Origin: an uncultured Verrucomicrobiota bacterium
Lineage (GTDB): Bacteria > Verrucomicrobiota > Kiritimatiellia > RFP12 > UBA3636
Length of the DNA: 64,000 nt
Direction: 5' to 3'
Assembly: GCA_947169825.1 (NCBI GenBank)
Contig: CAMVRE010000001.1
Location: 16,463 to 80,462, forward strand
Part shown: positions 9,861 to 58,332 of the stretch, piece by piece
Layout of the letters: each line of letters begins with the position of its first letter
Numbering within the stretch: position 1 is the stretch's first letter
The notes under the pieces: model-generated
Database searches by the model: none
What the model saw: the letters and a program-made list of their open reading frames with translations, nothing else
What the model was told of the DNA's origin: nothing
Translations under genes and position numbers: made by a program

Positions 9861-10148
9861 ATGAGGAAGCTTCTGGACCATCTCAAGGCGCACGAGGGCA
9901 CGGCGGATCCGTGGATCCTCGTCTGGGACAACCGCGGAACGTTTCCGCGGAAGGTTGGCGAACTCATACGCATCTGCAATCTTGCGACGGGCGCCTCGCA
10001 GCTCTTCGGCATCCCCGTCCGCACGTCGACCTACGTCGACTACCGCGGCGAGGTCGTCCTCGAAACCCGCGTCGAGCGCGCCGAGCTTCCGGAGCTCGTC
10101 GCCCGCCTCGAGTCCCGCCTCCGCCGCCCGCTCCGCCGCGTTTCGTGA
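9861..10148 (+). CDS. Small conserved protein (95 aa); partner gene of the AlbA_2 module, paralog of 14852-15142
   Basis: ggggagaag lies upstream. It is about 80% identical at both protein and DNA level to 14852-15142 (DPWILVWDNRxTFPRKVGxxIRICNLATGAS..FGIPVRTSTxVDYRGEVVLETRVERAELPEL). It ends 38 nt before the AlbA_2 gene. Confidence 0.65.
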   Translation: MRKLLDHLKAHEGTADPWILVWDNRGTFPRKVGELIRICNLATGASQLFGIPVRTSTYVDYRGEVVLETRVERAELPELVARLESRLRRPLRRVS

Positions 10149-13871: not shown

Positions 13872-14741
13872 TCACGCGGCCTTGTATCGTCGTTCATAGG
13901 CCCGTCGGTCGAACGCAACCGACGGGAACACCTTCCCGAACGAATGGTCGAGCAGGGACGGCGTCTCGCGGTAGCGGCCGCCGGTGTTGTCCAACAGCCG
14001 ACCCATCGGGTTGACGACGATGTAGGCGTTAACGATGTCCGCCGTGTTCTCCACGACGGGGCGGCAGTCCGCGTGGCGCGCCGCAAAAGCCTCGAATTCC
14101 GCGCCGGAGACGAGCAGATCGTCCGCGTGGTCGTTCGTCCCTTCGATCCGGATCATCCGCAGCAGCTTCCACCGATCGGGACGGACTGCCGCCACCAAGG
14201 CGTGGAAGTCCTGGCGGCAGTTCACCCGGTTGACCACGGTGTTGATCTTCAGCCGGATTCCCGCGGCGTGGATCGCGCGCGCCAGCTCCCCTAGCCGCGA
14301 CATGGACAGGCTCTGGCCGGCGCCGTTGACACGCCCCAGCCGGCAGTTGTCCTCGTGGCGGAAGGCGTCGACGCTGATGCCGATCATGGACAGCTTGTTC
14401 CGGTTGGCGTCGATCCACGACGGCGTGAGCAGGCTGCCGTTCGTGATGACGGAGACGGGAATGCCCAATCCGTGGATGTGGTCGATCAGCCCTTGGGCGA
14501 ACGGCGCCGCCAGAGGCTCTCCTCCCGCCAGATTGAACCGGCGCACGTCCACGTCGCGAGTGATGTTGGAGACGATTCGCTTCCATTCTTCCAGCCCCAG
14601 CGGCGTCCTGCCGAAACGCGAATGGCAGAACCGGCACCGGTAGTTGCAGATGTCGGTGTAGTGGAGATTGACGACCAGGTCCTGGTATTCCTTCATGGCA
14701 CGGGTTCCTTGTTCGGGTTGGATGGCTTCCACATTTGGCAT
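13872..14741 (-). CDS. Prokaryotic viperin-like radical SAM enzyme (pVip)
   Basis: VVNLHYTDICNYRCRFCH carries the CxxxCxxC cluster. GGEPL and SVITNGSLL align with eukaryotic viperin (NYHFTRQCNYKCGFCFH...SGGEPF...VSNGSLI). GGAGGA lies 7 nt upstream of ATG 14741. Confidence 0.85.
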   Translation of the reverse strand: MPNVEAIQPEQGTRAMKEYQDLVVNLHYTDICNYRCRFCHSRFGRTPLGLEEWKRIVSNITRDVDVRRFNLAGGEPLAAPFAQGLIDHIHGLGIPVSVITNGSLLTPSWIDANRNKLSMIGISVDAFRHEDNCRLGRVNGAGQSLSMSRLGELARAIHAAGIRLKINTVVNRVNCRQDFHALVAAVRPDRWKLLRMIRIEGTNDHADDLLVSGAEFEAFAARHADCRPVVENTADIVNAYIVVNPMGRLLDNTGGRYRETPSLLDHSFGKVFPSVAFDRRAYERRYKAA

Positions 14742-14851
14742 AAGGGATTCCTCCGCCGGTTTTCCGATTTTGCGGTTTTACCGGTTTGCGATGGAAATGA
14801 CCGGAATCCGCCGCTTATGGGTGGTGTCGGCGGAATCCGTCAAAACGAGAC

Positions 14852-15142
14852 ATGCACAAACTCCTAGAACACCTCAAAGCGCATCTTTCGACGGCCGATC
14901 CGTGGATTCTCGTCTGGGACAATCGCGAGACGTTTCCGCGGAAGGTCGGGGACCGTATCCGCATCTGTAATCTGGCGACGGGCGCGTCGCTGTTCTTCGG
15001 CATCCCCGTTAGGACTTCGACCTGGGTCGACTACCGCGGCGAGGTCGTTCTCGAAACCCGTGTCGAGCGGGCCGAACTACCGGAACTGCTCGCGCGCCTC
15101 GAGGCGCGACTCCGACATTCGCCGGGCCGCCGCGTTTCATGA
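14852..15142 (+). CDS. Small conserved protein (96 aa); partner gene, paralog of 9861-10148
   Basis: See 9861-10148. The 3' flanking sequence tgatttcctttcggc is also duplicated. Confidence 0.65.
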   Translation: MHKLLEHLKAHLSTADPWILVWDNRETFPRKVGDRIRICNLATGASLFFGIPVRTSTWVDYRGEVVLETRVERAELPELLARLEARLRHSPGRRVS

Positions 15143-15179: not shown

Positions 15180-18100
15180 ATGCAAGCCACTTCCACCGCA
15201 CGGTCTCCTCTGGTTCCCGTCAACGGATACGATTTTGCCCGATCGGTTCTCGACCAGGAACCGGATCGTGGCGTCGAGATACTTCTTCAGGCGGCAGGCG
15301 AAAACGAATCGGACTGGCTCGAAAAGAAAGCCGCGGTCTACCGGTCGGAAAGCAAGGACGAACGCTTCCGGAAAGCGTTGGAAAACTGCCCCCCCGAACA
15401 GAGGAAACGCAGGAAAGATCTCCTGAATCTCGAATTGCTCGCTGAAATCGCCAAGGCCATCGTCGCCATCCACAACTCCCGAGGTGGCGTTTTGTTCGTC
15501 GGCATCGACGACCAAACCAATGAACCCGTTTCCTTCGAAAACAACGACGGCGGAGAAATCTGGAGGACGAACGGAAAGGGCGACTATGCCCTCAAGGCGG
15601 TTTGGGGCCGGCTTGCCCGGGAGAACGGAGAGTTTCGTTTCGACCACGAGACATTGATCGTTCCGGTGGAAGCCGTCGGCGTGGTTCCAAAATGGTGTCG
15701 CTACAAGAACGCGGATGTCCTCGCCCTGCTCATCCCCCCGCTCGCACCCGAAAAGAATCCGCTTGAAGTCACGCACGTCGAAAACAATTCTCCGTGGAGA
15801 TCCATTCCGAAGAGAGCACCAGGAGATGTCGGTCAAGTCAAGAAGGAAATGCGAAACGATGCGTGGATCGGTTCCGCCGCACAATTGGCCGATTTCCACC
15901 ACGCCCGCCAAGAACGTTTTCTAAATCAAACCGATCTTGCTTCCAAACTCAAGATACTTGGTCTTTCCGTTCCCAGCTCCTTTGTTTCCCAAATTCCGAA
16001 GCCCCGGCAGGAAATCACCTCGACCGTCGACCGTCCGCGCGCAGCCAACTTCGTCGGACGCGAAAAGGAACTCGAAGAGTTGCACGAACTGCTCGCGGAC
16101 GGACGAATCCCCGTCGTGACCGGTCCAGGTGGGACGGGCAAGTCCGAGTTGGTCCTCCAGTACGCCGCACGGAACAAGGCCGACTACCCCGGAGGTTTGT
16201 TCCAGATTGACATGGAAGACGTCACCGATTGGAATCAGACCTTCCTATCAATGCTGGAGAAGCCCGGCGTTCGGGATGTTCTCGGACTTCCGGTGAACAA
16301 CGAAGCCGAGATAGAATGTGAAGCCGAAAAGGAACCAAGTGTCAATAGTGCGGAATTGGCAGCCGACGGAACTGGCATGCCATGCGACAATTGCTTGAGA
16401 GAGAGCATCGCCGGAGACAAGAAATCCGTTCCAGCGGCCTTGTCCGCCCGGGTCGGCAGGGCAGGTCCCATTTTGATGATCCTTGACAACGTCGATCCTC
16501 CAGCCTGCAAAACGCTTTTCAAGGAAACCGTCCTCTCCAAACTGGGTCTTCCGTCCGACGTGAAAATCGTCGCCACGGCACGGGCGTCAGATCTTACCTT
16601 TCCGGCCAGCGGCGTCTGCAAGGAATTCCGACTTTCCGACTTGTTGCCGGATGTAGCCGTCCGGTTTTTGCTGGCAAATCACCCGGAGGCTTCCGAAGAC
16701 GAACGGAAGGCGGCGGAAAACATCGCCCGGATGCTTGATTATCGCATCCTCTATCTGAAGGCCGTTCCCTCGCTGTTGGAGGATGACGATTCCGATTTTG
16801 CCGGGTCGTGGAGGGCACTCGAAGCGGGCCTGCGCGACAATCTCGCGGATGTCGTCGCCGCGGGAATGGAAGACGACAGGGGCCGGACGCCGTCCGCCCT
16901 TTGGCAACTGACGCAAAAGGCTTTTGCCGCCAATCGTCCAAAAGGAGACAGGTGGATTCTCCTGGCGCGGATCGCCTCGTTCTTTTCTCCTGACCTCGGC
17001 ATCCGGAAAGCCGCGCTTTCCGCATTGTGGAAAAGCATCTCGGCGCCAGATGGCGATCTGGACATCGCCTTTGATCAGGCGATCAACAAACTTCTCAAGC
17101 ATGGTATCCTCGAGGACCGAGACGGCGAATACTATATGCATCGTCTCACATGCGCGGCCATTCGAGCCGCTTCAAGAGAGGAAGCGCCGAACATCGAGGA
17201 ATCTGTCGGTTTGTCATTGGCGGGAACTGGTCGCTCGGAGAGTCGGGACTGGGTATCGCTCTCCGGCAGTATTCCGGCCCTGCGCCATGTCCCGGAGGCT
17301 CTGCTCGACGGAAAGACGTGCGTTGACATCCTGTGCGGCAACCGTCAATTCGCCGACCTTTGCCCGTGGACAAAACTCGACTATTCTGATTGGAGGAAAC
17401 TTCTTGCCTTTCATCCACAGTTTATCGATCAATTGCAACAATCCGCTGATAATGGCAGCGCTGGTGCACAAATCGCTCTTGGGATTTGTTACTATTACGG
17501 TCGCGGCGTGAACCAGAATTACGAAGAAGCCGTAAAATGGTTCCGCAAGGCTGCCGAGCAGGAAAACGCTGCTGCGTATTCGAATCTCGGCGTATGCTAC
17601 GAAAAGGGCCGCGGCGTGGAACGGAACGCCGAAGAGGCCGCGAAATGGTACCGCAAAGCCGCCAATCAGGAAAACGCTACTGCGCAGACCAATCTCGGCA
17701 ATTGCTACTACAACGGTTGCGGCGTGGAACAGAGTTCTGAGGAAGCCGTGAAGTGGTACCTCAAGGCCGCCGAGAAGGGAAACGCTGATGCGCAGTTCAA
17801 TCTCGGCGTATGCTATGGCAATGGCCACGGCGTGAAGCAGAACGCCGAGGAAGCTGTGAGGTGGTTCCGCCAGGCCGCCAATCAGGAAAACGCTACTGCG
17901 CAGTTCAATCTCGGTTGCTGCTACTACCACGGTCGTGGTGTGGAACAGAACTACGAAGAAGCCGTGAGGTGGTGGCGCAGGGCCGCCGATCAAGGAAAGG
18001 GTGCAGCGCAATTTAATCTTGGCGTGTGCTATGGCAAGGGCCACGGCGTGGATCGGAGCGCCGAGGAAGCCGTGAAGTGGTACCGTAAGGCTGCCGAGCA

Positions 18101-19067
18101 GGAAGACGCCGCTGCGCAGGCTAGGCTCGGCTTGTGCTACGAGGAGGGCGAAGGCGTGGAACGGAACGCCGAGGAAGCCGTAAAATGGTACCGCAAGGCC
18201 GCCGAGCAGGGCAACGCTTCTGCACAGACAAAACTCGGTTATTGCAAGAATGACGGCCGTGGCATAGAACGAAGCGTCGAAGATGCGGTGAAGTGGTGGC
18301 AAAAAGCGGCAGAACGGGGGTACGCCCCGGCTCAATGGGAACTCGGTAGTTGCTTTGCCCTCGGAAAAGGTGTCGCGCGGAATGAGGAAGAGGCCGTAAA
18401 CTGGTGGCGTAAGGCGGCGGACCAAGGAAACCCCTGGAGACAAATCCGTTTGGGCCGGGTTCTTTTGTTCGGGAACGGCGTTGAAAAGAACGAGGCGGAG
18501 GCGTTCCGTTGGTTCCAGCGCGCGGCGGAACAAAAAGACGATTATGCGTTCGCCTGGCTCGGCTACTGTTTCGCGTCAGGAACCGGGACGCCCAAGGATA
18601 CACAAAAATCTGAATCGCTCTTTTTGAAGATCAGTCAACCCGCTCTTGGATTCAACGAGATTGCATGGTGTTTGTTCAAAGCAGGACGGTTTTCGGATGC
18701 CTTGCCGTTCGCGGAAAGGGCAGTTGCCGCGTTGCGGACAATCGAAGACTTCCCGATGCAGAAACGAATTATAATCCTCGATACACTTGCTGCCATTTTT
18801 CACCATTTGAACCGGGAAGAGGAAACGAAAGACGTTTGCTCCGAAATCCTGTCTCTGTTCCCAGAAAACGACGATTCAAAACACCACGAGGAAGCTCTCG
18901 TCCGGCTCGGGCGGGCCTGTCAACGCCTTGGCGACAAATCTGGCGCGGTCGATGCGTTCCAGAAGGCACTAACCATTGTGGAACGGCATGACGGCAAGCA
19001 CGCCGAATACGGAGAGTCCGCAGATTCCTTGCGCGCGTTGCTGGCCGAATTGTCGGAACGCGGTTGA
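15180..19067 (+). CDS. AlbA_2 N-terminal domain fused to STAND (NB-ARC-like) NTPase and Sel1/TPR repeat array; Avs-like architecture
   Basis: NGYDFARSV...ESDWLEKKAA...AIHNSRGGVLFVGIDD. Walker A PVVTGPGGTGKSELV and Walker B ILMILDNVD. At least 12 Sel1-type repeats (AQxxLGxCYxxGxGVxxNxEEAVKWYRKAAEQ). C-terminal TPR-like segment. Confidence 0.85.
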   Translation: MQATSTARSPLVPVNGYDFARSVLDQEPDRGVEILLQAAGENESDWLEKKAAVYRSESKDERFRKALENCPPEQRKRRKDLLNLELLAEIAKAIVAIHNSRGGVLFVGIDDQTNEPVSFENNDGGEIWRTNGKGDYALKAVWGRLARENGEFRFDHETLIVPVEAVGVVPKWCRYKNADVLALLIPPLAPEKNPLEVTHVENNSPWRSIPKRAPGDVGQVKKEMRNDAWIGSAAQLADFHHARQERFLNQTDLASKLKILGLSVPSSFVSQIPKPRQEITSTVDRPRAANFVGREKELEELHELLADGRIPVVTGPGGTGKSELVLQYAARNKADYPGGLFQIDMEDVTDWNQTFLSMLEKPGVRDVLGLPVNNEAEIECEAEKEPSVNSAELAADGTGMPCDNCLRESIAGDKKSVPAALSARVGRAGPILMILDNVDPPACKTLFKETVLSKLGLPSDVKIVATARASDLTFPASGVCKEFRLSDLLPDVAVRFLLANHPEASEDERKAAENIARMLDYRILYLKAVPSLLEDDDSDFAGSWRALEAGLRDNLADVVAAGMEDDRGRTPSALWQLTQKAFAANRPKGDRWILLARIASFFSPDLGIRKAALSALWKSISAPDGDLDIAFDQAINKLLKHGILEDRDGEYYMHRLTCAAIRAASREEAPNIEESVGLSLAGTGRSESRDWVSLSGSIPALRHVPEALLDGKTCVDILCGNRQFADLCPWTKLDYSDWRKLLAFHPQFIDQLQQSADNGSAGAQIALGICYYYGRGVNQNYEEAVKWFRKAAEQENAAAYSNLGVCYEKGRGVERNAEEAAKWYRKAANQENATAQTNLGNCYYNGCGVEQSSEEAVKWYLKAAEKGNADAQFNLGVCYGNGHGVKQNAEEAVRWFRQAANQENATAQFNLGCCYYHGRGVEQNYEEAVRWWRRAADQGKGAAQFNLGVCYGKGHGVDRSAEEAVKWYRKAAEQEDAAAQARLGLCYEEGEGVERNAEEAVKWYRKAAEQGNASAQTKLGYCKNDGRGIERSVEDAVKWWQKAAERGYAPAQWELGSCFALGKGVARNEEEAVNWWRKAADQGNPWRQIRLGRVLLFGNGVEKNEAEAFRWFQRAAEQKDDYAFAWLGYCFASGTGTPKDTQKSESLFLKISQPALGFNEIAWCLFKAGRFSDALPFAERAVAALRTIEDFPMQKRIIILDTLAAIFHHLNREEETKDVCSEILSLFPENDDSKHHEEALVRLGRACQRLGDKSGAVDAFQKALTIVERHDGKHAEYGESADSLRALLAELSERG

Positions 19068-19328
19068 ATTTAACGGGTTTCTTTCACAGAAGGCCTCCGC
19101 CTATGTCTGGGCGGAACAACTCCGATGTTTCGCGCGAAACAGGAAAAGAGTTTGCTGGGAATAATCGCCGAAGAGTTGCTTTGATCCCTTTTTCCGGTGC
19201 GCTCGGCGAGCGCATCCTACCGAGATGGCGGTGCAAAAACCGACGGATCGGGTTCGCATTGGTGGAAAACCGGTCAGACCGGACCTTATCGGGATTGATG
19301 GCAATCAACTCCGACAAGGAAACCGACG

Positions 19329-20561
19329 ATGCAGGCGGACGATCTTGAATCAGCACAGACCGTGCTGCAGGACAAAGTATTCCGGCGCGCAGGCGAACTC
19401 GGATACGACGCCGACAAGATTGAGCCGATCTATGACGGCGTGGCCGATGCAGTGGCATATCTTGACGCGAAGCCGCGGTTGATGTGGATCCTCAAGGAGC
19501 CCTACGACGACTGGGACGACGATGAAAGTCCCTGCGGCGGCGGATGGACGTTCTTCCGGGATGTCGCGAAGGGAAAGACCCTCGCGCAGGTCGCGAACGC
19601 GAACCCGGCCCTTCGCAACGTGGCGTACGCAAGCCGAGCCATTCTGGGCGGCATCGGTTCCTACGCAGAGCTGCCGTGGATTGTGGATGCGCCGGCGGAC
19701 TACGAGCGCTCGCTGCGGAGCATCGCGTTCGTAAACGTGGGCAAGATGCCGGCGGGTCGGACCACGAGCGAGGAACGCCTCGCCGCCTGTTATGCGCAAT
19801 GGAAGGACGTTCTCTTCGAGCAGATCGATCTCTATGATCCGGACATCCTCGTCTTCGGCAACACGCTGCAATGCTTCGAGCCGGACATGGGACTTGATCT
19901 TTCCAAGCCGGTCCGGACCGTGAAGAACGGAGGATCGACGGTGGATATCCACGTTTGGCGCGGCAAGCGCATCCTCTGGGCGCCGCATCCCGCCGCTCAC
20001 ATTCAACCCGAAGAATGGGTGGATTCCGTCATCGAGGCGGCACGGGGCCCGTTAATCCAGGCGGCGCGCTCGGCGAGCGCGCCCTACCGGGAGGAATCCG
20101 CCAGTCCGGTAGGGCGCGATGGCCCCATCGCGCCGGATTCCGAAATCGCGGTACGACCGTCGCAGAAAGTCGCACCGGAAGAAAAAAGCGGGCAGGCCCG
20201 GAAAACAGCGGCGGCTACCGCTTATACAAGGCAGAACAACCCCACGAACACACAACAAAACGAATCCAAAACCAGGAGCAGCACCATGTCCCAAGTCCAC
20301 GCCAATCCCGACGAAATCCGCGACTTCGCCGCCCGGCTCCAGGCCTGCGACGAGAACATCTCGGACGAACTTTCCGCCACGGCCGCCGCGTTCGCGGCGC
20401 TCGGCGACACCTGGAACGACGCCAAGCGCGCGGAGTTCGAGGAATCCTTCGAGGAGCTGAAGGACTGCATCGGCCGCTTCTCGGCCTCCTGCGCGGAGCA
20501 GGTTCCCCACCTGATCCGGCTCGCCGACCACCTCGACGAATTCAACGCCACCTTCTGCTGA
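19329..20561 (+). CDS. Hypothetical protein; N-terminal ~240-aa unknown domain and C-terminal 91-aa helical WXG100-like segment (possibly two genes, see findings)
   Basis: AAGGAA 7 nt upstream of ATG 19329. The ORF is continuous, but residues 241-319 are the translation of a GC-rich palindromic repeat. An A/C-rich canonical leader precedes internal ATG 20286 (MSQVHANPDEIRDFAARLQA...LGDTWNDAKRAEFEE...). Confidence 0.5.
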   Translation: MQADDLESAQTVLQDKVFRRAGELGYDADKIEPIYDGVADAVAYLDAKPRLMWILKEPYDDWDDDESPCGGGWTFFRDVAKGKTLAQVANANPALRNVAYASRAILGGIGSYAELPWIVDAPADYERSLRSIAFVNVGKMPAGRTTSEERLAACYAQWKDVLFEQIDLYDPDILVFGNTLQCFEPDMGLDLSKPVRTVKNGGSTVDIHVWRGKRILWAPHPAAHIQPEEWVDSVIEAARGPLIQAARSASAPYREESASPVGRDGPIAPDSEIAVRPSQKVAPEEKSGQARKTAAATAYTRQNNPTNTQQNESKTRSSTMSQVHANPDEIRDFAARLQACDENISDELSATAAAFAALGDTWNDAKRAEFEESFEELKDCIGRFSASCAEQVPHLIRLADHLDEFNATFC

Positions 20562-20566
20562 ACGAA

Positions 20567-21769
20567 ATGGAAACCGTCGCCTCCGTCGAAAACATGGAAG
20601 ATGTCTCGTCGGCCCTCTCCTCCGGGGTCGAGAACGCGGCGGAGTCCGTCCGCGAGACGGGCTCCTCGCTCGACGGCCTCTCGGAGGCGGCCGACGCCGC
20701 CCTCGCCGATGCGGAGCGCGCGGTCGAGGAGGCCCGGGCAGAAGTCGTCCGGCTCGAATCGCTGGTTTCGTCCCTCGAATCGCAAATCTCCTCCCAAGAC
20801 GACGGCGAGAAGGATTCCGGCGGAAACGATTCCGCCGCGGCCGAACTCGCGTCCGCGCAGGCGGATCTCGGAGAAGCGAAGGAAGAGCTTCGCAATTGCG
20901 AGGACCGTCGCGAGAAGGCGGCGGCGACGGCGCGCCGGGCGACGGCGCTGCGCGAACGCTTCCTGGACGCGAGCCGAGCTTCGCTGAAGCGGATGGAGGA
21001 TCTCGGAACCCTGTGCGCCTCCCGCGTCCGGCATGCCTGCGAGGCGCTGGAGAAGTACATCGCCGAACATCCCGGACACGCGGCGGCCGGATTCGCCGGA
21101 TGGATCCGGTGGACTCCGCCGGCGAACGCGCCCGTGACGCCCGATGCGCTCGCCGCCCGGATCAAGGGCGCGAATCTCCGGGAATCCATCGCCTACGAGG
21201 CGGAGCGCGATCCGCGGTTCCGGTCCAAGATCGAGGACTACGGACGCCGCTGGGAGTCCGCGGCCACGCTCTCGGAGAAGACGGCCGTCATCCGCCAGGC
21301 GCGCCGGAACGCCAGCGGCGAACTGGCGGAACGCGTCGTGACGGCGGCGTTCCGCCCGATCGGAGACGTCTCCACGCAGAACCGGACCGTCTTCGACGAC
21401 GGGCGCTACACGAAGACGGATCTCGTCGTCCGCAACCTGCGCGCGCCGGTGATCCTCGGGCGCGGCGACCGCGCCTTCGCCCCGAAAGGAGGGACGATCG
21501 CGTTCGAGGTCAAGGCGGGACAGGCGTCCTACCTGCGGTCGCAGGAGGACCATCTCGCGTTCCAGGCCGGCGGGCACCGGACGGCGAACGCCTCGGCGAC
21601 GATCTGCACGGCGGACATCCACGATCTGCCGGAAGCGGAGGAGCGCGAACTGAGGGACAGGCTCCGCGCCGCGGGTTCGCCGATCCTCGGCATGCTGCCG
21701 CGGAAGCGGGATATCGACCGGGCTCTCTACGAAGCCATCGTCTACGGAATCGGGAAGACCAGACCATGA
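20567..21769 (+). CDS. Coiled-coil N-terminal / putative PD-(D/E)xK nuclease C-terminal protein (polymorphic-toxin-like)
   Basis: Ala/Glu-rich helical N-terminus (AERAVEEARAEVVRLESLVSSLESQ). C-terminal YTKTDLVVRN...GGTIAFEVKAGQ fits the D...(D/E)xK restriction-endonuclease-fold motif. Translationally coupled to the upstream stop. Confidence 0.55.
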   Translation: METVASVENMEDVSSALSSGVENAAESVRETGSSLDGLSEAADAALADAERAVEEARAEVVRLESLVSSLESQISSQDDGEKDSGGNDSAAAELASAQADLGEAKEELRNCEDRREKAAATARRATALRERFLDASRASLKRMEDLGTLCASRVRHACEALEKYIAEHPGHAAAGFAGWIRWTPPANAPVTPDALAARIKGANLRESIAYEAERDPRFRSKIEDYGRRWESAATLSEKTAVIRQARRNASGELAERVVTAAFRPIGDVSTQNRTVFDDGRYTKTDLVVRNLRAPVILGRGDRAFAPKGGTIAFEVKAGQASYLRSQEDHLAFQAGGHRTANASATICTADIHDLPEAEERELRDRLRAAGSPILGMLPRKRDIDRALYEAIVYGIGKTRP

Positions 21770-21966
21770 ACGACAATCTCGCGACCTCCTTCAAGCGCGC
21801 TCTTGAACTCTTCCGGGAACAGACCCGCGGCGAGTTCGCGACGAATCTGATGGAGAAGGTCCTCGAACCAATGGCGAACGAACTGGACGCCCTGTCGTCC
21901 GAAATCGAAAGCGCGAACCGGGAACTCTCCGATCTCGAAACCGAACTCGAAGGAAACAACGAATGA
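21766..21966 (+). CDS. Small helical protein (66 aa), hypothetical
   Basis: ATG overlaps the upstream stop (ATGA). Coiled-coil ELDALSSEIESANRELSDLETELE. Ends 4 nt into the next start. Confidence 0.5.
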   Translation: MNDNLATSFKRALELFREQTRGEFATNLMEKVLEPMANELDALSSEIESANRELSDLETELEGNNE

Positions 21967-24900
21967 AGAACGACATCCGCGAAACCAACGACGAAATCCG
22001 CCGCCTCGTCGGCGCGCTCGACGCGAGCCTCGACGGCATCCCCGCCGGGGAGGTCGCGCGAGAAGCGGCGCTGAAGGCCCGGGCCGGGAAACTCGACGGC
22101 GAGATCGTGGGCCTGCTCGCGAAGGCGGGCTTCACCCGGGAAACGGCTGGCGCGGGCGCTTTCGACTCCCTGCGCCGAGAGGCGTCCGAACGCGCAGCCG
22201 AACGCGCGGGACGCGAAGGGGAAGCGTCGGACGCCGCGACCCGCGCGGCCGCGGTCCGCGCGGAAATCGCGGGGCTGGACGCCGACATCGAGTCGGCCAA
22301 GGCGCGGCAAAAGGCCCTCACGGACCGGATCGACGCGCTGACCGCCGAAATCCGGAACCGGTGGATCGTCGAGGACATCTGGCATTGGATCTTCGGGGAC
22401 GAGGCGAAGGCCGAGAAAGCGAGGGCCGAAGGCGCGAGGGCCGCCGTCCGGAACGAACTGGACGTGCTCCTCGGAAGCCTCCACGAGAAGGAGGAGCGCC
22501 GGAACGCTCTCGCCGCCGAAGAGTCGGACCTGCGCCGCCAGGAGGCCGAACTCGACGCCCGGATCGGGGAGAACGCCGCGCGGCAGAACGCCTTCCGAAA
22601 CGCCGTCGCGACGGCGCGGGAACACGGGAAGGTCCTCGCGGAACTGTCCGATCTGAAAGGCCGGCAGGAGAAGCGGGCCGCCGAACGCGCGCAGGCGGGA
22701 CGCGACGCAGCAAGGGAGCTCGGGGAGCGCGTCGCGGACATCCTCGGCGCGCAGCCCCGGCTCGCGGACCTCGGACCGGACGGATACGGGCGCGCGGAGA
22801 CGTTCCCGAAGGCGTTTTCGTTCGGGCGCTACCGCTTCTCCGCGGACGGCCACGACTGGTGCGTTCCGCGGATCCTGCCGTTCCCCATGCCGAAGTCGCT
22901 CGTCTTTCCCGCGACGGAAGCGGGGACGGCGGCCGTCCGCGAATTCCTCCTGCGCGCGTTCCAGTGCCTTCCGCCGGAATCCCTCGAGATCACCGTGTGC
23001 GATCCCGTCCGGATGGGCGCCTCGCTGAACGGGTTCCAGGGACTCCTCGACAACCGGAAGCCCGTCGCCGGCGGGAAGTTTCCGACCGTCGCGCCCGAAA
23101 TTGAGGAGGCGCTGTCGCGGCTTCACGGCGCGATCGAGACGTTCCTGCAGGAGGAGTGCACGGGCGAGATCCGCGACTGGGCGTCCTACAACGCCGCCCA
23201 TCCCGACCGGCCGAAGACCTACCGGATCCTCGCGATGTTCGACCTGCCGGACCAGCTCACGGACGCCGCCGCGGGCTACCTGGCGAAGATTCTCGAGAAC
23301 GGCCCGAAGTGCGGCATTCTGCCCCTTCTGGCCCTCGATCCGGCGAAGCTCGACCCCCGGAGGCATGCCGCGCTGAAGGCCGCTCTCGGAGCCTTCGCGT
23401 GGGACGCCGGACGGATGCAGGGGATTTTCGGCGGCTTTCCGGTTCTCCGGAACGCGCGTCTCGCCGCGGAGGAACCGTGCGCCCTTCCGGACGACGCGGG
23501 CGTCTCGGCGGCCCTTTCCGGGCTGTGCGCCGGCTACGCGGAGCGCGACCGCTTCGCCGGATCGCTGGAGTCGGTCTTGCGGGACGAGGCGTTCTGGGGA
23601 GCCACGTCCGAGAACGGCCTGGAGGCGACGATCGGATGGGAGGAGGAGAGCCGGGCCCCCGTCCGGTTCTCGCTGAGCGACCAGCCGCCCGTCCATGCGC
23701 TGCTCGGCGGATCGACCGGCTCGGGCAAGACGAACCTGCTCCACGTGCTGATCCACTCCCTCTGCCACCGGTATTCGCCGCGCGAGCTGAACCTCTACCT
23801 GCTCGACTACAAGGAGGCGACGGAGTTCAACGCCTATGCGCGCCCGCTCCTGCCTCACGCCGCGGGCATCGCAACGGAGAGCGACGTGGAATACGGCATC
23901 TCGGTCCTGCGCCATCTGGAGCGGGAGCGCATCCGCCGTTCCGAGCTCTTCAAGGAGGCGGGAACCGTCGATATCCGCGGATACCGGCGCAAGACCGGGG
24001 AGGCGCTGCCGCGCATCCTCCTCGTCGTCGACGAATTCCAGCGGCTGTTCGAGGGCGCGAAGGCGGGCGCCGAGGCGGAGACCCTGTTCCGGAACCTCCT
24101 CAAGCTCGGTCGGTCGGCCGGCATCCATCTGCTGATGGCGACGCAGACGGTGAACGGGCTCCAGAACATCGTTTCGATCCGGACGTTCCTCGGGCAGATG
24201 GCCTGCCGTCTCGCGCTGAAGTGCACGCCGGAGGATTCGGCCACGCTGCTCGCGATGGACAACCTGGCGGCGTCGACGCTGCCGGGACCGCCGCACGGCA
24301 TCCTCAACAACGACCTTGGAAAGAAGTCGGCGAACGTCCGCCTCTGCATCCCGCTGGCGGATCCGGACGGCTGCAAGGCCCACCTCGAGGAGCTGTCCGC
24401 AGCGGCGGCCGAACGTGGCGAGGGCGTGTCGGACTGCCGCGTGTTCCGCGGCACGGCGCTTCCGGAGCCGCCCGCGGACGGCGGGCTCGTTTCGCCGGAG
24501 GAGATCCGCGGCCCTCGGATCGCCGTCGGCCGGACGGCGGACTTCGAGGAGGAGCCGGTCTTCGCGGACCTGGACGGAAAGAACCTGCTCGTGGTCGCCC
24601 GGCGATCCGACATCGCCGGCGGGCTCCGCCGCGCGATCGCGCGGGGGATCGCCGCCGGGGCGGGAACGAAGGAGGTCCTTCTCTATTCGGAGAATCCGGA
24701 GGACTGGAACGCCCTCGACGGGGCCGCGAACATCGTCCGCGTCGACGACGAATGGAGCGGCGAGAACCTCGACGAGTTTGCGGCAAGGGACGCGGCCCGC
24801 AAGGTCGTCGTCCTCGACGGGTTCGAAAATCTCCGCGGGCTCCGCTCGGCGGGATACGTCCCCTCGCGGAGCGGCCCTTCCGCGGCGGAACGCCTCCGCG

Positions 24901-25181
24901 CGCTGGTCGAGCGACCGAAGAAAAGCGGCGTGCAGCTCGTGCTGCTCTTCCGCGACTACGGACGGGCGTGCCAGGACGCCAAGGGCCTGCTCTCGGTCTG
25001 CGACCTGCGCATCGGAGACATGACGCTCTCCGAACCGGCGAAGTTCCTCGGCTTCGAGGGAATCGGGCCGAGGGAGGTTCCGGCGCTCTCCCCGACCAAG
25101 GCCGTGCTGATCGACCGCGACGCCGACGGACCGGCCGTGTTCCGGCCGTTCGCGCAATCGAAAGGGGGCGCGCAATGGTAG
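21963..25181 (+). CDS. FtsK/SpoIIIE-family ATPase (single ATPase domain) with N-terminal coiled-coil region
   Basis: Walker A LLGGSTGSGKTNLLHVLI, Walker B RILLVVDEFQRLF, and GRSAGIHLLMATQTVNGL. GAAGGA RBS. No TM segment apparent. Confidence 0.85.
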   Translation: MKNDIRETNDEIRRLVGALDASLDGIPAGEVAREAALKARAGKLDGEIVGLLAKAGFTRETAGAGAFDSLRREASERAAERAGREGEASDAATRAAAVRAEIAGLDADIESAKARQKALTDRIDALTAEIRNRWIVEDIWHWIFGDEAKAEKARAEGARAAVRNELDVLLGSLHEKEERRNALAAEESDLRRQEAELDARIGENAARQNAFRNAVATAREHGKVLAELSDLKGRQEKRAAERAQAGRDAARELGERVADILGAQPRLADLGPDGYGRAETFPKAFSFGRYRFSADGHDWCVPRILPFPMPKSLVFPATEAGTAAVREFLLRAFQCLPPESLEITVCDPVRMGASLNGFQGLLDNRKPVAGGKFPTVAPEIEEALSRLHGAIETFLQEECTGEIRDWASYNAAHPDRPKTYRILAMFDLPDQLTDAAAGYLAKILENGPKCGILPLLALDPAKLDPRRHAALKAALGAFAWDAGRMQGIFGGFPVLRNARLAAEEPCALPDDAGVSAALSGLCAGYAERDRFAGSLESVLRDEAFWGATSENGLEATIGWEEESRAPVRFSLSDQPPVHALLGGSTGSGKTNLLHVLIHSLCHRYSPRELNLYLLDYKEATEFNAYARPLLPHAAGIATESDVEYGISVLRHLERERIRRSELFKEAGTVDIRGYRRKTGEALPRILLVVDEFQRLFEGAKAGAEAETLFRNLLKLGRSAGIHLLMATQTVNGLQNIVSIRTFLGQMACRLALKCTPEDSATLLAMDNLAASTLPGPPHGILNNDLGKKSANVRLCIPLADPDGCKAHLEELSAAAAERGEGVSDCRVFRGTALPEPPADGGLVSPEEIRGPRIAVGRTADFEEEPVFADLDGKNLLVVARRSDIAGGLRRAIARGIAAGAGTKEVLLYSENPEDWNALDGAANIVRVDDEWSGENLDEFAARDAARKVVVLDGFENLRGLRSAGYVPSRSGPSAAERLRALVERPKKSGVQLVLLFRDYGRACQDAKGLLSVCDLRIGDMTLSEPAKFLGFEGIGPREVPALSPTKAVLIDRDADGPAVFRPFAQSKGGAQW

Positions 25182-25344
25182 GGCGCGACGGCCCGTCGCG
25201 CCGGGCGCCGCGGCGCGTTCGGCGAACGCGCCCTACCGGGATCGGAATCCTCCTTGTGTTTCGGTGGAAAACCCGGAGCGTTGGGATTTATAGAAAGTGA
25301 AAGGACGACGGCCGTCCCGCGAAACCAACCGAAACGATAGCGAC

Positions 25345-26562
25345 ATGAACGAAGAGAACCTCCCCGCCCTCCCGATTCCGCACTGCCCCGTGATGATCGT
25401 CCTCGACACGTCCCACAGCATGTGGGGCCGCGGGATGCAGGACCAGCAGGACGCGCTCAAGGCCTTCCACAAGACCCTGGGCGCGCTCGAATTCGCCGAC
25501 TCGCGGATCGAGATCGCGGCGGTCGGGATGGGCGAGAACCTGAAGGTGCTGCAGCCCTTCGCGCCGCTCGCGGAGTCGAACGTCGCGAATCTGGCGATCC
25601 GTCCGAAGGGCGACACACCCGTTGGCGGCGCGCTCCGGCTCGCGCTCGGCGAACTGCGCCGGAGGACGGACGAGCTCCGCCGCGCCGGCGAGGGCGTCGC
25701 CACGCCGCAGCTGCTGGTTCTCTCGGACGGGAAGTCCTCGGACGACTTTTCCGCCGAAGCCGCCGAGATCCGCCGGGAAGCGGCGGCGGGCCGGCTCGTC
25801 TGCCGGGCCGTCGCGACCGGCGGGAGTCCAGACCTCGGCGCGCTCGCGCGCATCGCGGGGGAGAAGGTCGACCGTCCCGACTACGGAGGCCTCCGCGAGA
25901 CCTTCGCGAGGATCGGCGAAAAAGTGTCGCAGACCTACGAGGACGCCGTTCCCGACCTTCTGATGGCCGAGACCCGGCCGACGCCGAGCGGAACCTACGT
26001 CGAGGAGAAGCCCCGCCCCCTCGGCAACTCCGGTCGCCTGTCCGGCCGCACGGTGCTCGTGGACGGAACGAACGTCTGCTTCTGGGGACGGAACGGAACG
26101 ACAGCGAGCCTTGCGCCCGTCCTTGCGCTCGCCCGGGCGCTCGACGCGGAGGGAGCGGACTGGCAGGCGTGCTTTGACGCCTCCACGCGCCATCATCTGG
26201 CCCGGGGAGGAACCGGCGACGAGGCGGCCTACGAGAGACTTCTCCGCAGCCGTCCCGAGCGCTTTTCGGAGGCGCCGGGTGGAACCTGCGCCGACGTGTT
26301 TCTGCTCCAGGCCGCCGCCGCCGACCCGAAGACCGTCGTCGTCTCGAACGACTTCTACCGGGACCACGTGGCGGAGTATCCGTTCGTCAAGGACAAGAGC
26401 CGGTTCTTCCGCGGCGGCGTGTTCCGCGACCAGCTCTGCATCCCGAATCTCGGGATTCGCTGCGCGCTGATCCGGACGAGCGCGGCGTCTGACGCCGAAA
26501 TCCGTGAAACGGAGAAAAAGAGAACCTCCTGTGGAATCTTAGACGAGGGATTCCTTATCTAG
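25345..26562 (+). CDS. von Willebrand factor A domain fused to Zc3h12a-like NYN ribonuclease domain
   Basis: MIDAS VMIVLDTSHSMWG...GDTPVGGAL...LLVLSDGKS. C-terminal VLVDGTNVCFWGR...KTVVVSNDFYRDHVAEYPFVKDKSRFF aligns with MCPIP1 (DGSNVAMSHG...IVVSNDTYRDL...SFVNDKF). The start may be GTG 25297 instead. Confidence 0.8.
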   Translation: MNEENLPALPIPHCPVMIVLDTSHSMWGRGMQDQQDALKAFHKTLGALEFADSRIEIAAVGMGENLKVLQPFAPLAESNVANLAIRPKGDTPVGGALRLALGELRRRTDELRRAGEGVATPQLLVLSDGKSSDDFSAEAAEIRREAAAGRLVCRAVATGGSPDLGALARIAGEKVDRPDYGGLRETFARIGEKVSQTYEDAVPDLLMAETRPTPSGTYVEEKPRPLGNSGRLSGRTVLVDGTNVCFWGRNGTTASLAPVLALARALDAEGADWQACFDASTRHHLARGGTGDEAAYERLLRSRPERFSEAPGGTCADVFLLQAAAADPKTVVVSNDFYRDHVAEYPFVKDKSRFFRGGVFRDQLCIPNLGIRCALIRTSAASDAEIRETEKKRTSCGILDEGFLI

Positions 26563-26620
26563 GACAGAAGGACGCATCAAACCAACCCGAATTCGAACAA
26601 CAACAAGAAGGAACAAAACC

Positions 26621-27883
26621 ATGTCTCTCCTCCTCCTCGGCGGTCTCGCCATTGCCGGAATTGCGGCCTGGAACGCGCTCTCGGACAGTTCGTCCGGCTC
26701 GACGCCGGCCGCGCCGCCCCCGGCTCCCGTTCGCCGTCCCCGTCCGTCTCGTTCAGCGGGTTCCTCCCGTCCTTGCAAGGCGACGCCGACGCGCCCCCGG
26801 ACGCCGAAGGCGCTTCCTCCGACGGGCGGCGGATGGCTCGCCCAGTGCGGAGCGAGCGCCGTCCCGACCGGCGGGCCGACGACGGTCTACGACCCCAGCG
26901 GAAACCCGCTCCAGCTCTCCGCCGCCGACGAACTCGCCAGCGGCGGCGAGGGGACCGTCTACCGCTGCCCCGGGCACGACGGGTTCGTCATCAAGCTCTA
27001 CAAGCGCGACATCGTGGACAACCCGGAGAAACAGAAGGCCGTCGTGGGGAGACTCCGCGACATGCTCGTCATCGAGGCGCTCCGCAAGGATCGCGACATC
27101 GCCTGGCCGCAGATGCCCGTCTATGACGCGAACAAGCGCGTGGCGGGGTTCGTCATGCGCGCCGTTGACGGAGCGTCCTTCCGTTCCCTTCAGGGCGCGG
27201 CCCAGATCCAGCGTCTGTTCCCCGAATGGGATCGGAAGGACCTGGCCCTCGTGGCGCGCAACTTCCTCGACAAGATGCAGCTTCTTGCGGACCACGGCGT
27301 ACTCGTGAACGACTTCAACCCGGCGAACTTCATCGTCGGAAGGGACCACAGGGTCCGCCTCATCGACTGCGACAGCTTCCAGATTCCCTCCGCGAACGGA
27401 GGCTCTCCGCATGTCACGACGACCTACTTCGCCTCTCACTCCGCGCCGGAGCTCCTTCGCGATCCCTCGCTTCTCAAGCGGTCCCGCGGGCCGGAGCAGG
27501 CTCGGTTCGGTGCAGCCATCATCGTGTTCCAGCTCCTCATGTGCGGACTGCATCCCTACAGCCACAAGAACGGAGGAACTCCCGAGGGAAACCTCAAGGC
27601 CGGGCAATGCCCGCTGGGAATCGGTTCGGGATGCTCGATTCCGACTGGCTGGTACAATCTCCTTAGCTACCTTCCCTACACGATGATGGAGAAATTCATC
27701 CGGATGTTCCGTGACGGGCACGGCGACCTCTCGGTTCGACCGACTCTGGCGGAACTGAGAGCGGAAGTGGAGAAGTTCCTCTTCGTCATGAAGAAAGATC
27801 CGCTCCGCAGGGAACTTGCCCCGGCGACGCCCAAGGTGAAATCGGACTCGAACCAAGGTCCTTGGAAAAAACCGGCGGCCTAG
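26621..27883 (+). CDS. Membrane-anchored Ser/Thr protein kinase-like protein
   Basis: N-terminal TM LLLLGGLAIAGIAAW. Gly-rich loop LASGGEGTVYRC, then VIKLYK, HGVLVNDFNPANFIV (catalytic loop) and LIDCDSF (DFG-like). Confidence 0.75.
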   Translation: MSLLLLGGLAIAGIAAWNALSDSSSGSTPAAPPPAPVRRPRPSRSAGSSRPCKATPTRPRTPKALPPTGGGWLAQCGASAVPTGGPTTVYDPSGNPLQLSAADELASGGEGTVYRCPGHDGFVIKLYKRDIVDNPEKQKAVVGRLRDMLVIEALRKDRDIAWPQMPVYDANKRVAGFVMRAVDGASFRSLQGAAQIQRLFPEWDRKDLALVARNFLDKMQLLADHGVLVNDFNPANFIVGRDHRVRLIDCDSFQIPSANGGSPHVTTTYFASHSAPELLRDPSLLKRSRGPEQARFGAAIIVFQLLMCGLHPYSHKNGGTPEGNLKAGQCPLGIGSGCSIPTGWYNLLSYLPYTMMEKFIRMFRDGHGDLSVRPTLAELRAEVEKFLFVMKKDPLRRELAPATPKVKSDSNQGPWKKPAA

Positions 27884-27967
27884 TGGAAAACCCGGAGGCC
27901 CAGAACTTAATCTAGGTAAAGGAACGAACAACCAAGCTTCAACAAACCCACAAACCCCGAACAGACC

Positions 27968-28663
27968 ATGAAAGACTACGCCAACAACAACACCCTCGAC
28001 GTCACCAACCCCGCGCCGCGCTGCCCGGTGATTCTTCTCCTCGACACGTCCGGAAGCATGGACGGCTCGCCGATCCACGAGCTCAACCAGGGCGTCCGGC
28101 AGTTTCTGGAGGAGACGAGGAGCGACGAGGCGGCCGGTATGAGCGTCGAACTGGAGGTCATCACTTTCGACGACCGCGCCTCGCGCGTCATTCCCTTCCG
28201 GTCCATCGCGGGCGTGAACGGCCTGCCTTCGTTCGGAGCCGGCGGAATGACGAGCATGGGCGCCGCGCTGCGGATGGCGACGGCCGATCTCAAGGCCCGC
28301 CGCCACCTCTACCGCCAGACCGGCGTCTCGAGCTACCGTCCGTGGGTGGTGCTGATGACGGACGGCGGTCCCAACGACGAGTGGCGGAACGCCGCCCGTG
28401 AGATGCGCGAGATGGGGGAGCGAGGGCGCATCCAGTACATCGGCATCGAGATCGGCCATCAGGTGGACCATCGGACGATGTGCCAGATCCTGCCGGCGAA
28501 TCCGGGGCCCGTTCGTCTGCAGGGGCTGAAGTTCAAGCAGTTCTTCCGCTGGCTCACGGACTCCCTGCGCAGCGTCTCCCGCAGCACGCCGGAGCAGGAG
28601 AGCCAGGTGCGGTTCGGCGACATCCGGTCATGGGCCGACCTGGCGAGCCTCGAGAACCTCTAG
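27968..28663 (+). CDS. vWA domain protein (TerY-like)
   Basis: PVILLLDTSGSMDG (MIDAS DxSxS), then SMGAAL...VVLMTDGGPND. Confidence 0.8.
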   Translation: MKDYANNNTLDVTNPAPRCPVILLLDTSGSMDGSPIHELNQGVRQFLEETRSDEAAGMSVELEVITFDDRASRVIPFRSIAGVNGLPSFGAGGMTSMGAALRMATADLKARRHLYRQTGVSSYRPWVVLMTDGGPNDEWRNAAREMREMGERGRIQYIGIEIGHQVDHRTMCQILPANPGPVRLQGLKFKQFFRWLTDSLRSVSRSTPEQESQVRFGDIRSWADLASLENL

Positions 28664-28685
28664 GCCGATGGAAGGAACGAAGAAA

Positions 28686-29792
28686 ATGACCGACAGGAAC
28701 CACCCGATTTCGCGCGGCTTCGCTGCCTCCGTCCCCGGCGCGGGGCACATCCGGTACGCCACGCCGTGCCAGGACGCCTCCGGTGCGATCCTTGCGCCGC
28801 GTCCGGCGGCCATCGTCTGCGACGGCCGCGGCAGCGCGAGGCTCTCGCACTTCGGAGCGCAGGGCGCGGTTCGCGCGTTCTTCAGCCAGCTGAGCGTCCT
28901 CGAGCCGTTCCTCGCCGGCGTGCTCGACCGGGAGGCGCCCCAGGAGAAGTGGGACGGCCTCTGCCGACTCCTCTACCGGACGCTCCTTCAGGTCAAGCTC
29001 GACCTCGCGGCGGAGCGCGGCGGCGAGGAGAAGGACTTCGACTTCACCGTGGCGTTCGCCGTGGCGGGGACCGTCTCGATCGGCTGCTTCCAGGTCGGCG
29101 ACGGGGCCATCGTCCTGCGGAACGGAGGCGTCTGCAGGACCGCGTTCGAGCCCGACAAGGGCGAGTTCGCGAATCAGACTCAGTTCCTCCGTCCGGGCGG
29201 CGATGCCGCGGGAAAGTTCCACGCCAGGCTCTTCCCCGCCGAAGAGAACGAGGGCGTGGCGATCACCTCGGACGGCCCCGAGCACCTCATGTTCCGCCAG
29301 CCCGCGATGGAGCCCGGCCCCATCTTCGGACAGCTTTTCGACGATCTTGCCGCGGGCGAACTCTGCGAGCAGGACCTCCGCGACTATCTCACGAGGGCCG
29401 TCTGGTCGTCCGATCCGCGCGGTTCGGACGACCGGTCCATCGCGGTGCTCCTTCCGAACGCCGCGCAAACTGCAGTCCATCCGACGAAAGCGAAAACGCC
29501 CGACCGGGGCCGTCCGGAACCGCCGCCCGAGCCGATCGGGAACGAAGACGACGATGGACCGGAGGACGATTCAATGGAACCGAACGAAATCCGGAACGAG
29601 GCGGCGCCGTCCGCCGAACGCGCCACGTGCGCTCCGCCGCGTCGACCCGTCTCCCCCTGGATCGCCGCCGCCATCCTCGCCGCCTGCATTCTCGTCGCCG
29701 TGGACACGATCCGCTCCTGGTGGAAGCCGTGCCTCGAATGGAGCGCCGCCCCGACCGCCGCGTACGCCCAGCCGGAGAACGACAACCTCTAG
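28686..29792 (+). CDS. PP2C-family Ser/Thr protein phosphatase-like protein with C-terminal TM anchor
   Basis: SVPGAGHIRYATPCQDAS...IVCDGRGSARLSHFGAQ...FAVAG...GDGAIV. GGAAGGAA sits upstream of ATG 28686; an alternative ATG at 28668 lacks an RBS. C-terminal WIAAAILAACILVAV. Confidence 0.7.
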   Translation: MTDRNHPISRGFAASVPGAGHIRYATPCQDASGAILAPRPAAIVCDGRGSARLSHFGAQGAVRAFFSQLSVLEPFLAGVLDREAPQEKWDGLCRLLYRTLLQVKLDLAAERGGEEKDFDFTVAFAVAGTVSIGCFQVGDGAIVLRNGGVCRTAFEPDKGEFANQTQFLRPGGDAAGKFHARLFPAEENEGVAITSDGPEHLMFRQPAMEPGPIFGQLFDDLAAGELCEQDLRDYLTRAVWSSDPRGSDDRSIAVLLPNAAQTAVHPTKAKTPDRGRPEPPPEPIGNEDDDGPEDDSMEPNEIRNEAAPSAERATCAPPRRPVSPWIAAAILAACILVAVDTIRSWWKPCLEWSAAPTAAYAQPENDNL

Positions 29793-29810
29793 CCAGAAAG
29801 GACCATCGCC

Positions 29811-30401
29811 ATGCCGCGCACCACATTCCTCTCCAAATTCCATGTTTCGCAAACGGAGGCCTTCCGGGCCTTCGACGCCGTCTGCAGGGAGCTGCGCGAC
29901 GTCGGGCTGATGAAGGGCGGCGGAGAGCTGGAGGGGGTCGAATGCGAATGGCATCCCGAGGGAATCGGTTCGTTCGGCGTCTCGGGGTGCGGACTCTCGG
30001 ACTTCGCGACCGAGGGCTACTACTGGAACCGGACGATCCATCTGCCCGCCTGGGGGTTCTGGTTCGGCAGCGCCGACGGCATCCGCAACGTCGTGCGCCA
30101 CGAGTTCGGACACGCGCTCGCGGACATCCGTCCGAAGCCGTTCAAGGGGGCCGTCTTCCGCAGGGCGTTCGGCGCTCCGTACGGCCGACGCAAGGTCGCC
30201 CGGTTCCGCTCCGACTGGGAGGAGTCCTGCGTCTCGAAGTACGCTTCGTCCTGCACCCAGGAGGACTGGGCCGAGACGTTCATGCTCTTCCTGCGGAACA
30301 AGGGGCGGATGCCCGCCCGCTTCCGCGGTCTGCCCGACATCGAGGCCAAGTGGGACGCGACGCATTCGATTCTTTCGAAGATGGGGTGGAACCGAGGTTG
30401 A
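29811..30401 (+). CDS. Putative Zn-metallopeptidase (HExxH)
   Basis: NVVRHEFGHALADI. Confidence 0.55.
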   Translation: MPRTTFLSKFHVSQTEAFRAFDAVCRELRDVGLMKGGGELEGVECEWHPEGIGSFGVSGCGLSDFATEGYYWNRTIHLPAWGFWFGSADGIRNVVRHEFGHALADIRPKPFKGAVFRRAFGAPYGRRKVARFRSDWEESCVSKYASSCTQEDWAETFMLFLRNKGRMPARFRGLPDIEAKWDATHSILSKMGWNRG

Positions 30402-39904: not shown

Positions 39905-40018
39905 CCGCGCCCTCAGCACATCAAGAGCCGGGGTTCTTCCGCCCCGCCCCAACCGAGCGATCGCGCCACGGTGGATCCGGACAAGCCGGGATGCGCCCTG
40001 AACCGAAAGGGAAAAACC

Positions 40019-44756: not shown

Positions 44757-44789
44757 ATGCCGAATGCTGAATGCTGAATGCTGAATTCC
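44755..44789. repeat. (GAATGCY)x5 heptamer array overlapping stop codon of 41331-44756
   Basis: gaatgccgaatgctgaatgctgaatgctgaattcc. Confidence 0.9.
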
Positions 44790-45678: not shown

Positions 45679-45759
45679 CAATGCTGAATGCTGAATGCCG
45701 AATGCCGAATGACAGACCGACTTTAAACTTTAAACTTTAAACCCTTCAACCTTTCAACC
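45679..45759. repeat. Composite repeat: (GAATGCY)x5 + (ACTTTAA)x3 + cccttcaacctttcaacc leader box
   Basis: caatgctgaatgctgaatgccgaatgccgaatgac...actttaaactttaaactttaa acccttcaacctttcaacc. The leader box is also present at 44834-44852. Confidence 0.85.
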
Positions 45760-58331: not shown

Positions 58332-58332
58332 G

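Follow-up and report, generated by a model that had tools for sequence, protein, structure and literature searches.

The open reading frame at 19329-20561 (+) of the DNA analysed here, a stretch of 64,000 nt called the window below, encodes 410 amino acids. At a probability of roughly 0.65 we regard it as two genes in one frame with two products, a free WXG100 protein and a tethered UDG-fold-WXG100 fusion. The division of the ORF into three parts was confirmed. Residues 1-240 (19329-20048, ending with a glycine) form a domain of the uracil-DNA glycosylase (UDG) fold, residues 241-319 (20049-20285) correspond to about 80 codons free of stops, and residues 320-410 (20286-20561) are a WXG100-family gene of 91 amino acids, which opens with the methionine of ATG 20286 and whose TGA is the sole stop codon of the whole frame. 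The ORF coordinates and the low-complexity peptide quoted in the first-pass annotation agree exactly with residues 241-319, and 20049-20285 has, as stated there, no stop in the ORF frame. The hidden gene boundary that it suspected at 20286 is well supported: the Pfam match starts just behind this position, both halves have stand-alone homologues, a conserved motif and an AGGAG precede the ATG, and the linker between the halves is unconstrained. Because these several lines meet at 20286, the reading that the upstream gene lost its stop is right.

On our preferred reading the upstream gene (19329-20048) would specify a UDG-fold protein of about 240 amino acids that lacks a stop codon in its clade, and the downstream gene (20286-20561) would be an ordinary 91-aa WXG100 gene heading an operon with a 400-aa protein, a 66-aa protein and an ATPase of the FtsK/SpoIIIE type. 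The 237 nt in between would be the control region of this operon, which happens to be stop-free and in phase and would have been kept so. Since purifying selection acts on the UDG-fold domain and the only stop available is that of the WXG100 gene, a fusion product is to be expected, barring stalling at hairpins or ribosome rescue; it would join the UDG-fold domain through a disordered tether of about 80 residues to WXG100 and would occur alongside free WXG100. Tentatively, the fusion may be used, for example by coupling the UDG-fold domain via WXG100 to free WXG100 and the FtsK-like ATPase, but a function of the fusion is unproven. A fuller version of this idea, in which selection keeps regulatory DNA translatable and in phase and the tethered form pairs with free WXG100 and is presented to a soluble FtsK-like ATPase as a cargo or sensor of reversed topology, is possible, if rather doubtful. 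Beyond the first-pass annotation, our results suggest that the linker is a complete control region, that the arrangement is inherited and not an error, and that there is moderate evidence for a maintained phase.

The UDG-fold and WXG100 domains

The AlphaFold2 model of residues 1-240 has a pLDDT of 91.6 and ends with a helix at 227-239. The best 50 Foldseek matches in the PDB were all UDG, UdgX, TDG, MUG or SMUG1 structures, with E-values from 3.5e-6 (4zbx) to 1e-3, a probability of 1.0 and TM scores of 0.44-0.58, at a sequence identity of 12-18%. The confident model and these matches together identify the alpha/beta fold common to the UDG superfamily (family 4 UDG, UdgX, TDG/MUG and SMUG1). 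A profile search of the PDB gave a weak match to family-4 UDGs (E ~0.6) that covered the same region, and no match for this domain family was obtained in Pfam, NCBIfam or PADLOC. K56-E57-P58-Y59-D60 and H220-P221 are invariant; by position they look like UDG motifs A and B and may contain the catalytic residues, although by eye the first motif, K-E-P-Y-D, differs from the G-E-x-P-G of family-4 UDGs. With dN/dS values of 0.11-0.35 the domain is under purifying selection. The family comprises 810 representative clusters, nearly all of 230-250 aa, that is, stand-alone proteins of about 240 aa, and the fused 410-aa form is confined to one of its clades. The close homologues P0010 and P0012, which are located elsewhere, have a stop codon of their own.

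The downstream domain was recognised by Pfam PF06013 (E 5e-9; 36.8 bits against a cut-off of 27.3; profile positions 2-58), with the match beginning at residue 4 after ATG 20286; the NCBIfam model TIGR03930 scored 24.4 bits, under its cut-off of 44.85. AlphaFold2 predicts a helical hairpin (helices 327-361 and 364-409, pLDDT 70-92), as expected for a WXG100 helix-turn-helix of about 100 residues. The W-x-G of the turn is missing: the turn reads G-D-T-W-N-D, in which the tryptophan is invariant and the third position of the motif is D in all relatives. Purifying selection is evident in this part too (dN/dS 0.11-0.47).

Stand-alone WXG100 homologues of 89-92 aa were found in 21 clusters, at 67-98% identity, and the WXG100 operon occurs without a UDG-fold gene in the loci L014, L016 and L026-29. 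These comparisons show that the gene exists alone in relatives; it also has putative transcription and translation signals of its own. Stand-alone proteins with the turn LGDTW(N/D)D (L011, L012, L013, L017-L020) came from MAGs of Pedosphaera (Verrucomicrobia), soil metagenomes and Helicobacter salomonis, and from these hosts it follows that the W-x-D subfamily is spread among diderm bacteria.

In GenBank a homologous ORF of 405 aa is annotated as one CDS (MBP5544008.1, 'WXG100 family type VII secretion target'). This annotation and the conservation of the ORF would suit a single true fusion gene, in which WXG100 is never made alone and ATG 20286 is an internal methionine. Such a gene is highly improbable, however. 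The linker drifts freely apart from its conserved promoter-like motif, leader and AGGAG, the stand-alone WXG100 gene of L014 has these signals in front of it too, and the stand-alone homologues reach 98% identity. Annotation as one 405-aa WXG100 protein hides both a UDG-fold family of some 800 clusters and the true 91-aa WXG100 gene.

The control region between the domains

Positions 20049-20285 have 62% G+C and 8.9% T. In nine homologous loci the dN/dS of the linker was 0.66-1.8, about 0.9, with substitutions distributed evenly over the codon positions (e.g. 18/16/16), whereas the flanks gave 0.11-0.47 with an excess of substitutions at the third position. The G+C content at codon positions 1/2/3 is flat in the linker (0.59/0.61/0.69) compared with 0.67/0.43/0.76 and 0.65/0.43/0.91 in the flanks, and AlphaFold predicted no secondary structure for residues 244-323 (pLDDT 25-32, i.e. 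<50). These data show that the linker codons are free of amino-acid selection and that both flanking domains are constrained. They support the view that the linker behaves as non-coding control DNA, made up of a palindrome, a promoter-like motif, a leader and a probable ribosome-binding AGGAG.

The promoter-like motif, GGAAAAC-N15-TTAT with a TTATAC box (20200-20225, +), is located 60 nt before ATG 20286. It is followed by an A/C-rich, T-poor 5' leader (20226-20285, +) that contains the Shine-Dalgarno sequence AGGAG (20274-20278) 7 nt before the ATG. The remark in the first-pass annotation that this leader is of a type seen before other genes was borne out: the A+C fraction is 0.79 ahead of 20286, 0.71 ahead of 26621, 0.76 ahead of 27968 and 0.83 ahead of 32403, and the window as a whole has 0.51. 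GGAAAWC-N15-TTAT has 9 matches in the window where 0.47 are expected, and 8 of the 9 precede, by 28-60 nt, the ATG of a same-strand ORF of at least 90 aa (for example 19329, 20286, 25345 and 27968). The sites before gene starts are at 2641, 14740-14765 (-), 14793, 19264, 20200, 25266, 27885 and 31592. One of them (19264-19289, +) reads GGAAAAC-N15-TTAT and lies 39 nt before ATG 19329; L002 likewise has the motif, 40 nt ahead of the corresponding start.

All of the homologous linkers, and L014 as well, keep the motif with the identical 15-nt spacing, and in the 29 fetched loci exact matches occur solely before the starts of WXG100 or UDG-fold genes. Conservation at the nucleotide level in the linkers is seen in GGAAA(A/T)C-N15-TTAT, in a CAGA box and in the AGGAG 7 nt before the ATG; AGGAG or AAGAG is present in every homologue, even where the upstream gene is missing. 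Scans of the plus strand between the genes found no match to the sigma-70 consensus, from which GGAAAWC-N15-TTAT deviates, and no intrinsic terminator. From the position of the motif we consider GGAAAAC-N15-TTAT to be the putative promoter of the WXG100 operon. In the unfused relatives L007 (~4820-4870) and L008 (~4823-4870) the UDG-fold gene ends with ATGGAAATCTGA, and its stop codon overlaps a GGAAATC ... TTAT motif that apparently serves the next gene. This overlap indicates that the UDG-fold gene family tends to abut a promoter.

The 5' part of the linker contains the GC-rich palindromic repeat that had been reported inside the ORF (79% G+C at 20060-20136). The element, R1 (20063-20134, +), consists of three adjacent hairpins: H1 (20063-20083) with the arms GGCGCGCTC/GAGCGCGCC, H2 (20084-20112) with the arms CTACCGG/CCGGTAG and H3 (20113-20134) with the arms GGCGCGATG/CATCGCGCC. 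As RNA the linker folds with a dG of -94 kcal/mol (z = -3.65 against shuffles), and a search of it against Rfam at gathering thresholds gave no match. When the three-hairpin model was applied to 6 homologues, 91% of cells were paired and there was 1 compensatory pair, no better than in shuffles; RNAalifold favours an alternative long hairpin, also without covariation. Because covariation does not exceed that of shuffles, selection on the palindrome at the RNA level is unproven.

The 25-nt core of H1 occurs 3 times in the window with up to 3 mismatches (19197, 20064 and 25213; 0.01 expected), and a fourth, looser copy is found at 2561-2581. The copy upstream of the UDG-fold gene (GGTGCGCTCGGCGAGCGCATCC; 19196-19217, +) has an equivalent before the same gene in L015. 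Past the ATPase gene there is a second full module (25182-25291, +) composed of an H3-type hairpin (25182-25202) directly 3' of the ATPase stop codon, an H1 copy (25212-25232) and a promoter-like motif (25266-25291). H1 resembles the REP/BIME-type repeats in being a GC-rich imperfect palindrome with several intergenic copies. However, there are just 4 copies in the 64-kb window (3 close and 1 looser), one of them inside an ORF, and all four are on the plus strand, each 29-116 nt upstream of a promoter-like motif. Since the copies precede the same motif, an operator or upstream site fits as well as a REP/BIME repeat, and H1 could be such a site instead of a REP element.

REP elements that follow E. 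coli genes at a short distance are described as a brake on expression. In a similar way transcripts might end or ribosomes stall at the hairpins, with the UDG-fold protein being freed by ribosome rescue and the palindrome acting as an expression brake; little fusion protein could then be made. The hairpins are indeed very stable and start 15 nt past the end of the UDG-fold domain, and similar ones stand right after the ATPase stop at 25182. This explanation is nevertheless distinctly unlikely. There is no T-tract terminator, purifying selection on the UDG-fold domain argues for a stable product, the frame is still open in L003, L006, L023 and L005, which have no palindrome, and the exclusion of stops farther downstream would be left unexplained.

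Inheritance and maintenance of the open frame

A frameshift or lost stop near 20040-20060 in the raw data was one concern raised beforehand. The check was negative: 11 independent assemblies, which differ in sample and pipeline, share the open frame with its stop-less junction, and this refutes a sequencing or assembly artefact. Nine complete fused ORFs from different assemblies and samples encode 365-451 aa, and on two further partial contigs the frame is open up to the contig edge. The relatives are MAGs of Kiritimatiellae and 'Verrucomicrobia' from yak rumen and other metagenomes, and within its clade the fused state is basal and dominant. Orthologues with a conserved single protein and a structured linker had been named as evidence that would speak against a boundary. 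The single ORF does exist in the orthologues, but its linker has the very low pLDDT given above and is not conserved as protein. The first-pass annotation had also offered a lost stop and a tolerated linker as alternatives. Both hold, and it is only their mutual exclusion that has to be dropped: as the ORF is open in relatives too, the repeat is evidently tolerated in the role of a tether as well.

Is the open frame maintained or merely inherited? The linkers of the complete fused ORFs are 240, 300, 264, 225 and 105 nt long, and their 5' halves cannot be aligned between groups. Of five length changes relative to 240 nt, four are multiples of 3 (p = 0.045). In the aligned linkers, 12 distinct stop sites fall in the two phases not used by the ORF and 0 in the ORF phase. 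Nine of the 12 are derived relative to the window; since these nine are not shared with it, they are free of ascertainment bias, and the chance that none would fall in the ORF phase is (2/3)^9 = 0.026. Together (about p = 0.01, from some 10 related sequences) these figures are moderate evidence that the open frame may be maintained by selection against stops and frameshifts.

The competing view is a neutral accident, in which the stop was lost once, T-poor DNA is stop-poor anyway and the fusion is a harmless by-product or barely made; the gene boundary would be unchanged. Several observations are in keeping with it. Shuffles of the linker were stop-free in 16-35% of trials, and a single stop-free frame is by itself unremarkable here. 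When the observed substitutions were replayed, the frame stayed open in 30-85% of trials per pair of sequences. The dN/dS of the linker is close to 1, and in the loci named above the operon does without the upstream gene. A second reading frame has no stop in the linker either: an ORF at 19955-21769 (+), 604 aa, extends over the entire WXG100 gene and enters the 400-aa gene in that gene's frame. This alternative-frame ORF is a compositional artefact and a hazard for annotation.

The locus L015 (222-2660; contig JAEEGL014351286.1) is a further point on the side of chance. A 2-nt deletion in the A-run GAAGAAAAAAGC of its linker breaks the phase; no other indel separates this locus from a 97%-identical relative over about 2.5 kb. 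The resulting ORF of 812 aa crosses WXG100 in a different frame and continues into the 400-aa gene in the frame of the latter, all frames being stop-poor here. Unless the deletion is an assembly error, this break of phase means that the fusion is not indispensable.

Against a neutral origin stand the absence of any of the 9-12 independent stop sites from the ORF phase and the fact that four of the five length changes are in frame. Moreover, the pattern spans lineages with a dS of 0.4-0.8 or more in the UDG-fold domain and with unalignable 5' halves of the linker, and no relative with this context has regained a stop. We therefore think that chance is improbable as the whole account, though far from negligible, and keep two products from one maintained frame as the preferred reading. 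If the open frame is selected, the locus would be a clean natural case of promoter and 5' leader DNA doubling as a protein tether indifferent to its sequence, and also a case of a WXG100 protein with an N-terminal enzyme-like domain. A programmed frameshift to the TAA of another phase at 20056-20058 was considered separately and rejected; L022 and L005 do not have this stop, and there is no conserved slippery site.

The WXG100 operon and its neighbourhood

The next gene of the operon (20567-21769, +) encodes a coiled-coil protein of 400 aa, whose C-terminal domain is conserved and, by eye only, PD-(D/E)xK-like; a PDB profile search with this protein returned only coiled-coil noise. It is followed by a gene for a 66-aa protein (21766-21966, +), whose start and stop overlap those of its neighbours (ATGA), and by the gene for an FtsK/SpoIIIE-family ATPase of 1072 aa with a coiled-coil N-terminus (21963-25181, +; Pfam PF01580, E 1.6e-27). 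The 400-aa and 66-aa genes and the ATPase gene are syntenic in all related loci. The best NCBIfam models for the ATPase, EccCa/EssC, scored far under cut-off (99.8 against 509 bits).

A WXG100 gene ahead of an FtsK/SpoIIIE-type ATPase gene in one operon recalls the WXG100/ESAT-6 proteins and their ATPase partners in type VII secretion, and the 91-aa helical hairpin, the Pfam match and the tryptophan at the turn add to the likeness. There are also differences. The turn is W-N-D and not W-x-G, and the ATPase is not of the membrane-anchored EssC/EccC type with several ATPase domains: one FtsK_SpoIIIE stretch was recognised, the N-terminus is coiled-coil, and a crude hydropathy scan found no TM-like segment. 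In the downstream genes that were scanned, Pfam recognised no membrane component of type VII secretion such as EssB/EccB or EccD. The genes nearby are instead of the vWA, PP2C and kinase-like kinds, and the host is a PVC bacterium of the Kiritimatiellae type. The locus is thus predicted, from its genes, to be a WXG100 / FtsK-like system that does not fall within the canonical definition of type VII secretion.

WXG100-like domains fused to cargo are known from the LXG toxins of Firmicutes and the PE/PPE-domain enzymes of mycobacteria. The predicted fusion resembles them in combining an enzyme-like domain, a flexible linker and a helical domain of the WXG100 type. Here, however, the order is reversed: the putative cargo forms the N-terminal part and WXG100 the C-terminal one, and in place of a dedicated linker they are joined by the promoter and leader of the next gene. 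Another parallel is provided by nested genes such as infB, clpB and cheA, which yield a long and a short isoform through internal initiation. They likewise have one frame and two products (predicted ones in our case) with a common C-terminal part. In contrast to them, the short form here apparently has a promoter to itself, most relatives have the two halves as separate genes and the connector is unconstrained. As in a read-through fusion, no in-frame stop separates two otherwise independent genes, and this holds in several lineages. Literature searches found nothing relevant on WXG100 with vWA, PP2C or FtsK, on type VII secretion in Kiritimatiellae or Verrucomicrobia, or on C-terminal WXG100 fusions.

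Downstream of the ATPase gene (25345-30401) there are a vWA-like gene with a DTSHS motif (25345), a kinase-like gene (26621), a vWA gene (27968), a PP2C gene (28668) and a Peptidase_Mx gene (29811). Triads of kinase, PP2C and vWA genes, without a link to WXG100, have been described by Kaur et al. 2020 (PMC7159879), and the gene set resembles these triads of conflict systems more closely than a classical T7SS.

The upstream neighbour of the fused ORF is an SLFN/AAA/Sel1 STAND-like gene. Three paralogous N-termini of the SLFN/AlbA_2 type belong to large STAND-like proteins (10452, 12300 and 15446), a 240-nt repeat with 83% identity is found at 9900-10139 and 14891-15130, and an array of Sel1 repeats with a period of 108 nt occupies 17443-18390. 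The paralogues, the repeats and the Sel1 array look like a defence-island neighbourhood. Farther along the window a SAM-I/IV riboswitch was detected at 39913-40026 (+; 45.4 bits against a gathering score of 41.1). Additional repeats, at positions reported jointly as 61656-61798; 58330-58434; 37768-37856, 44755-44786, 45679-45710; and 47665-47838, comprise a tandem 8-mer (GACCGTGY)n, a tandem 9-mer (ATGGTCGCG/ATAGTCTCG)n, runs of the heptamer GAATGCT, one of which has an inverted partner and so forms a hairpin, and an 80-nt inverted repeat with a 14-nt spacer.
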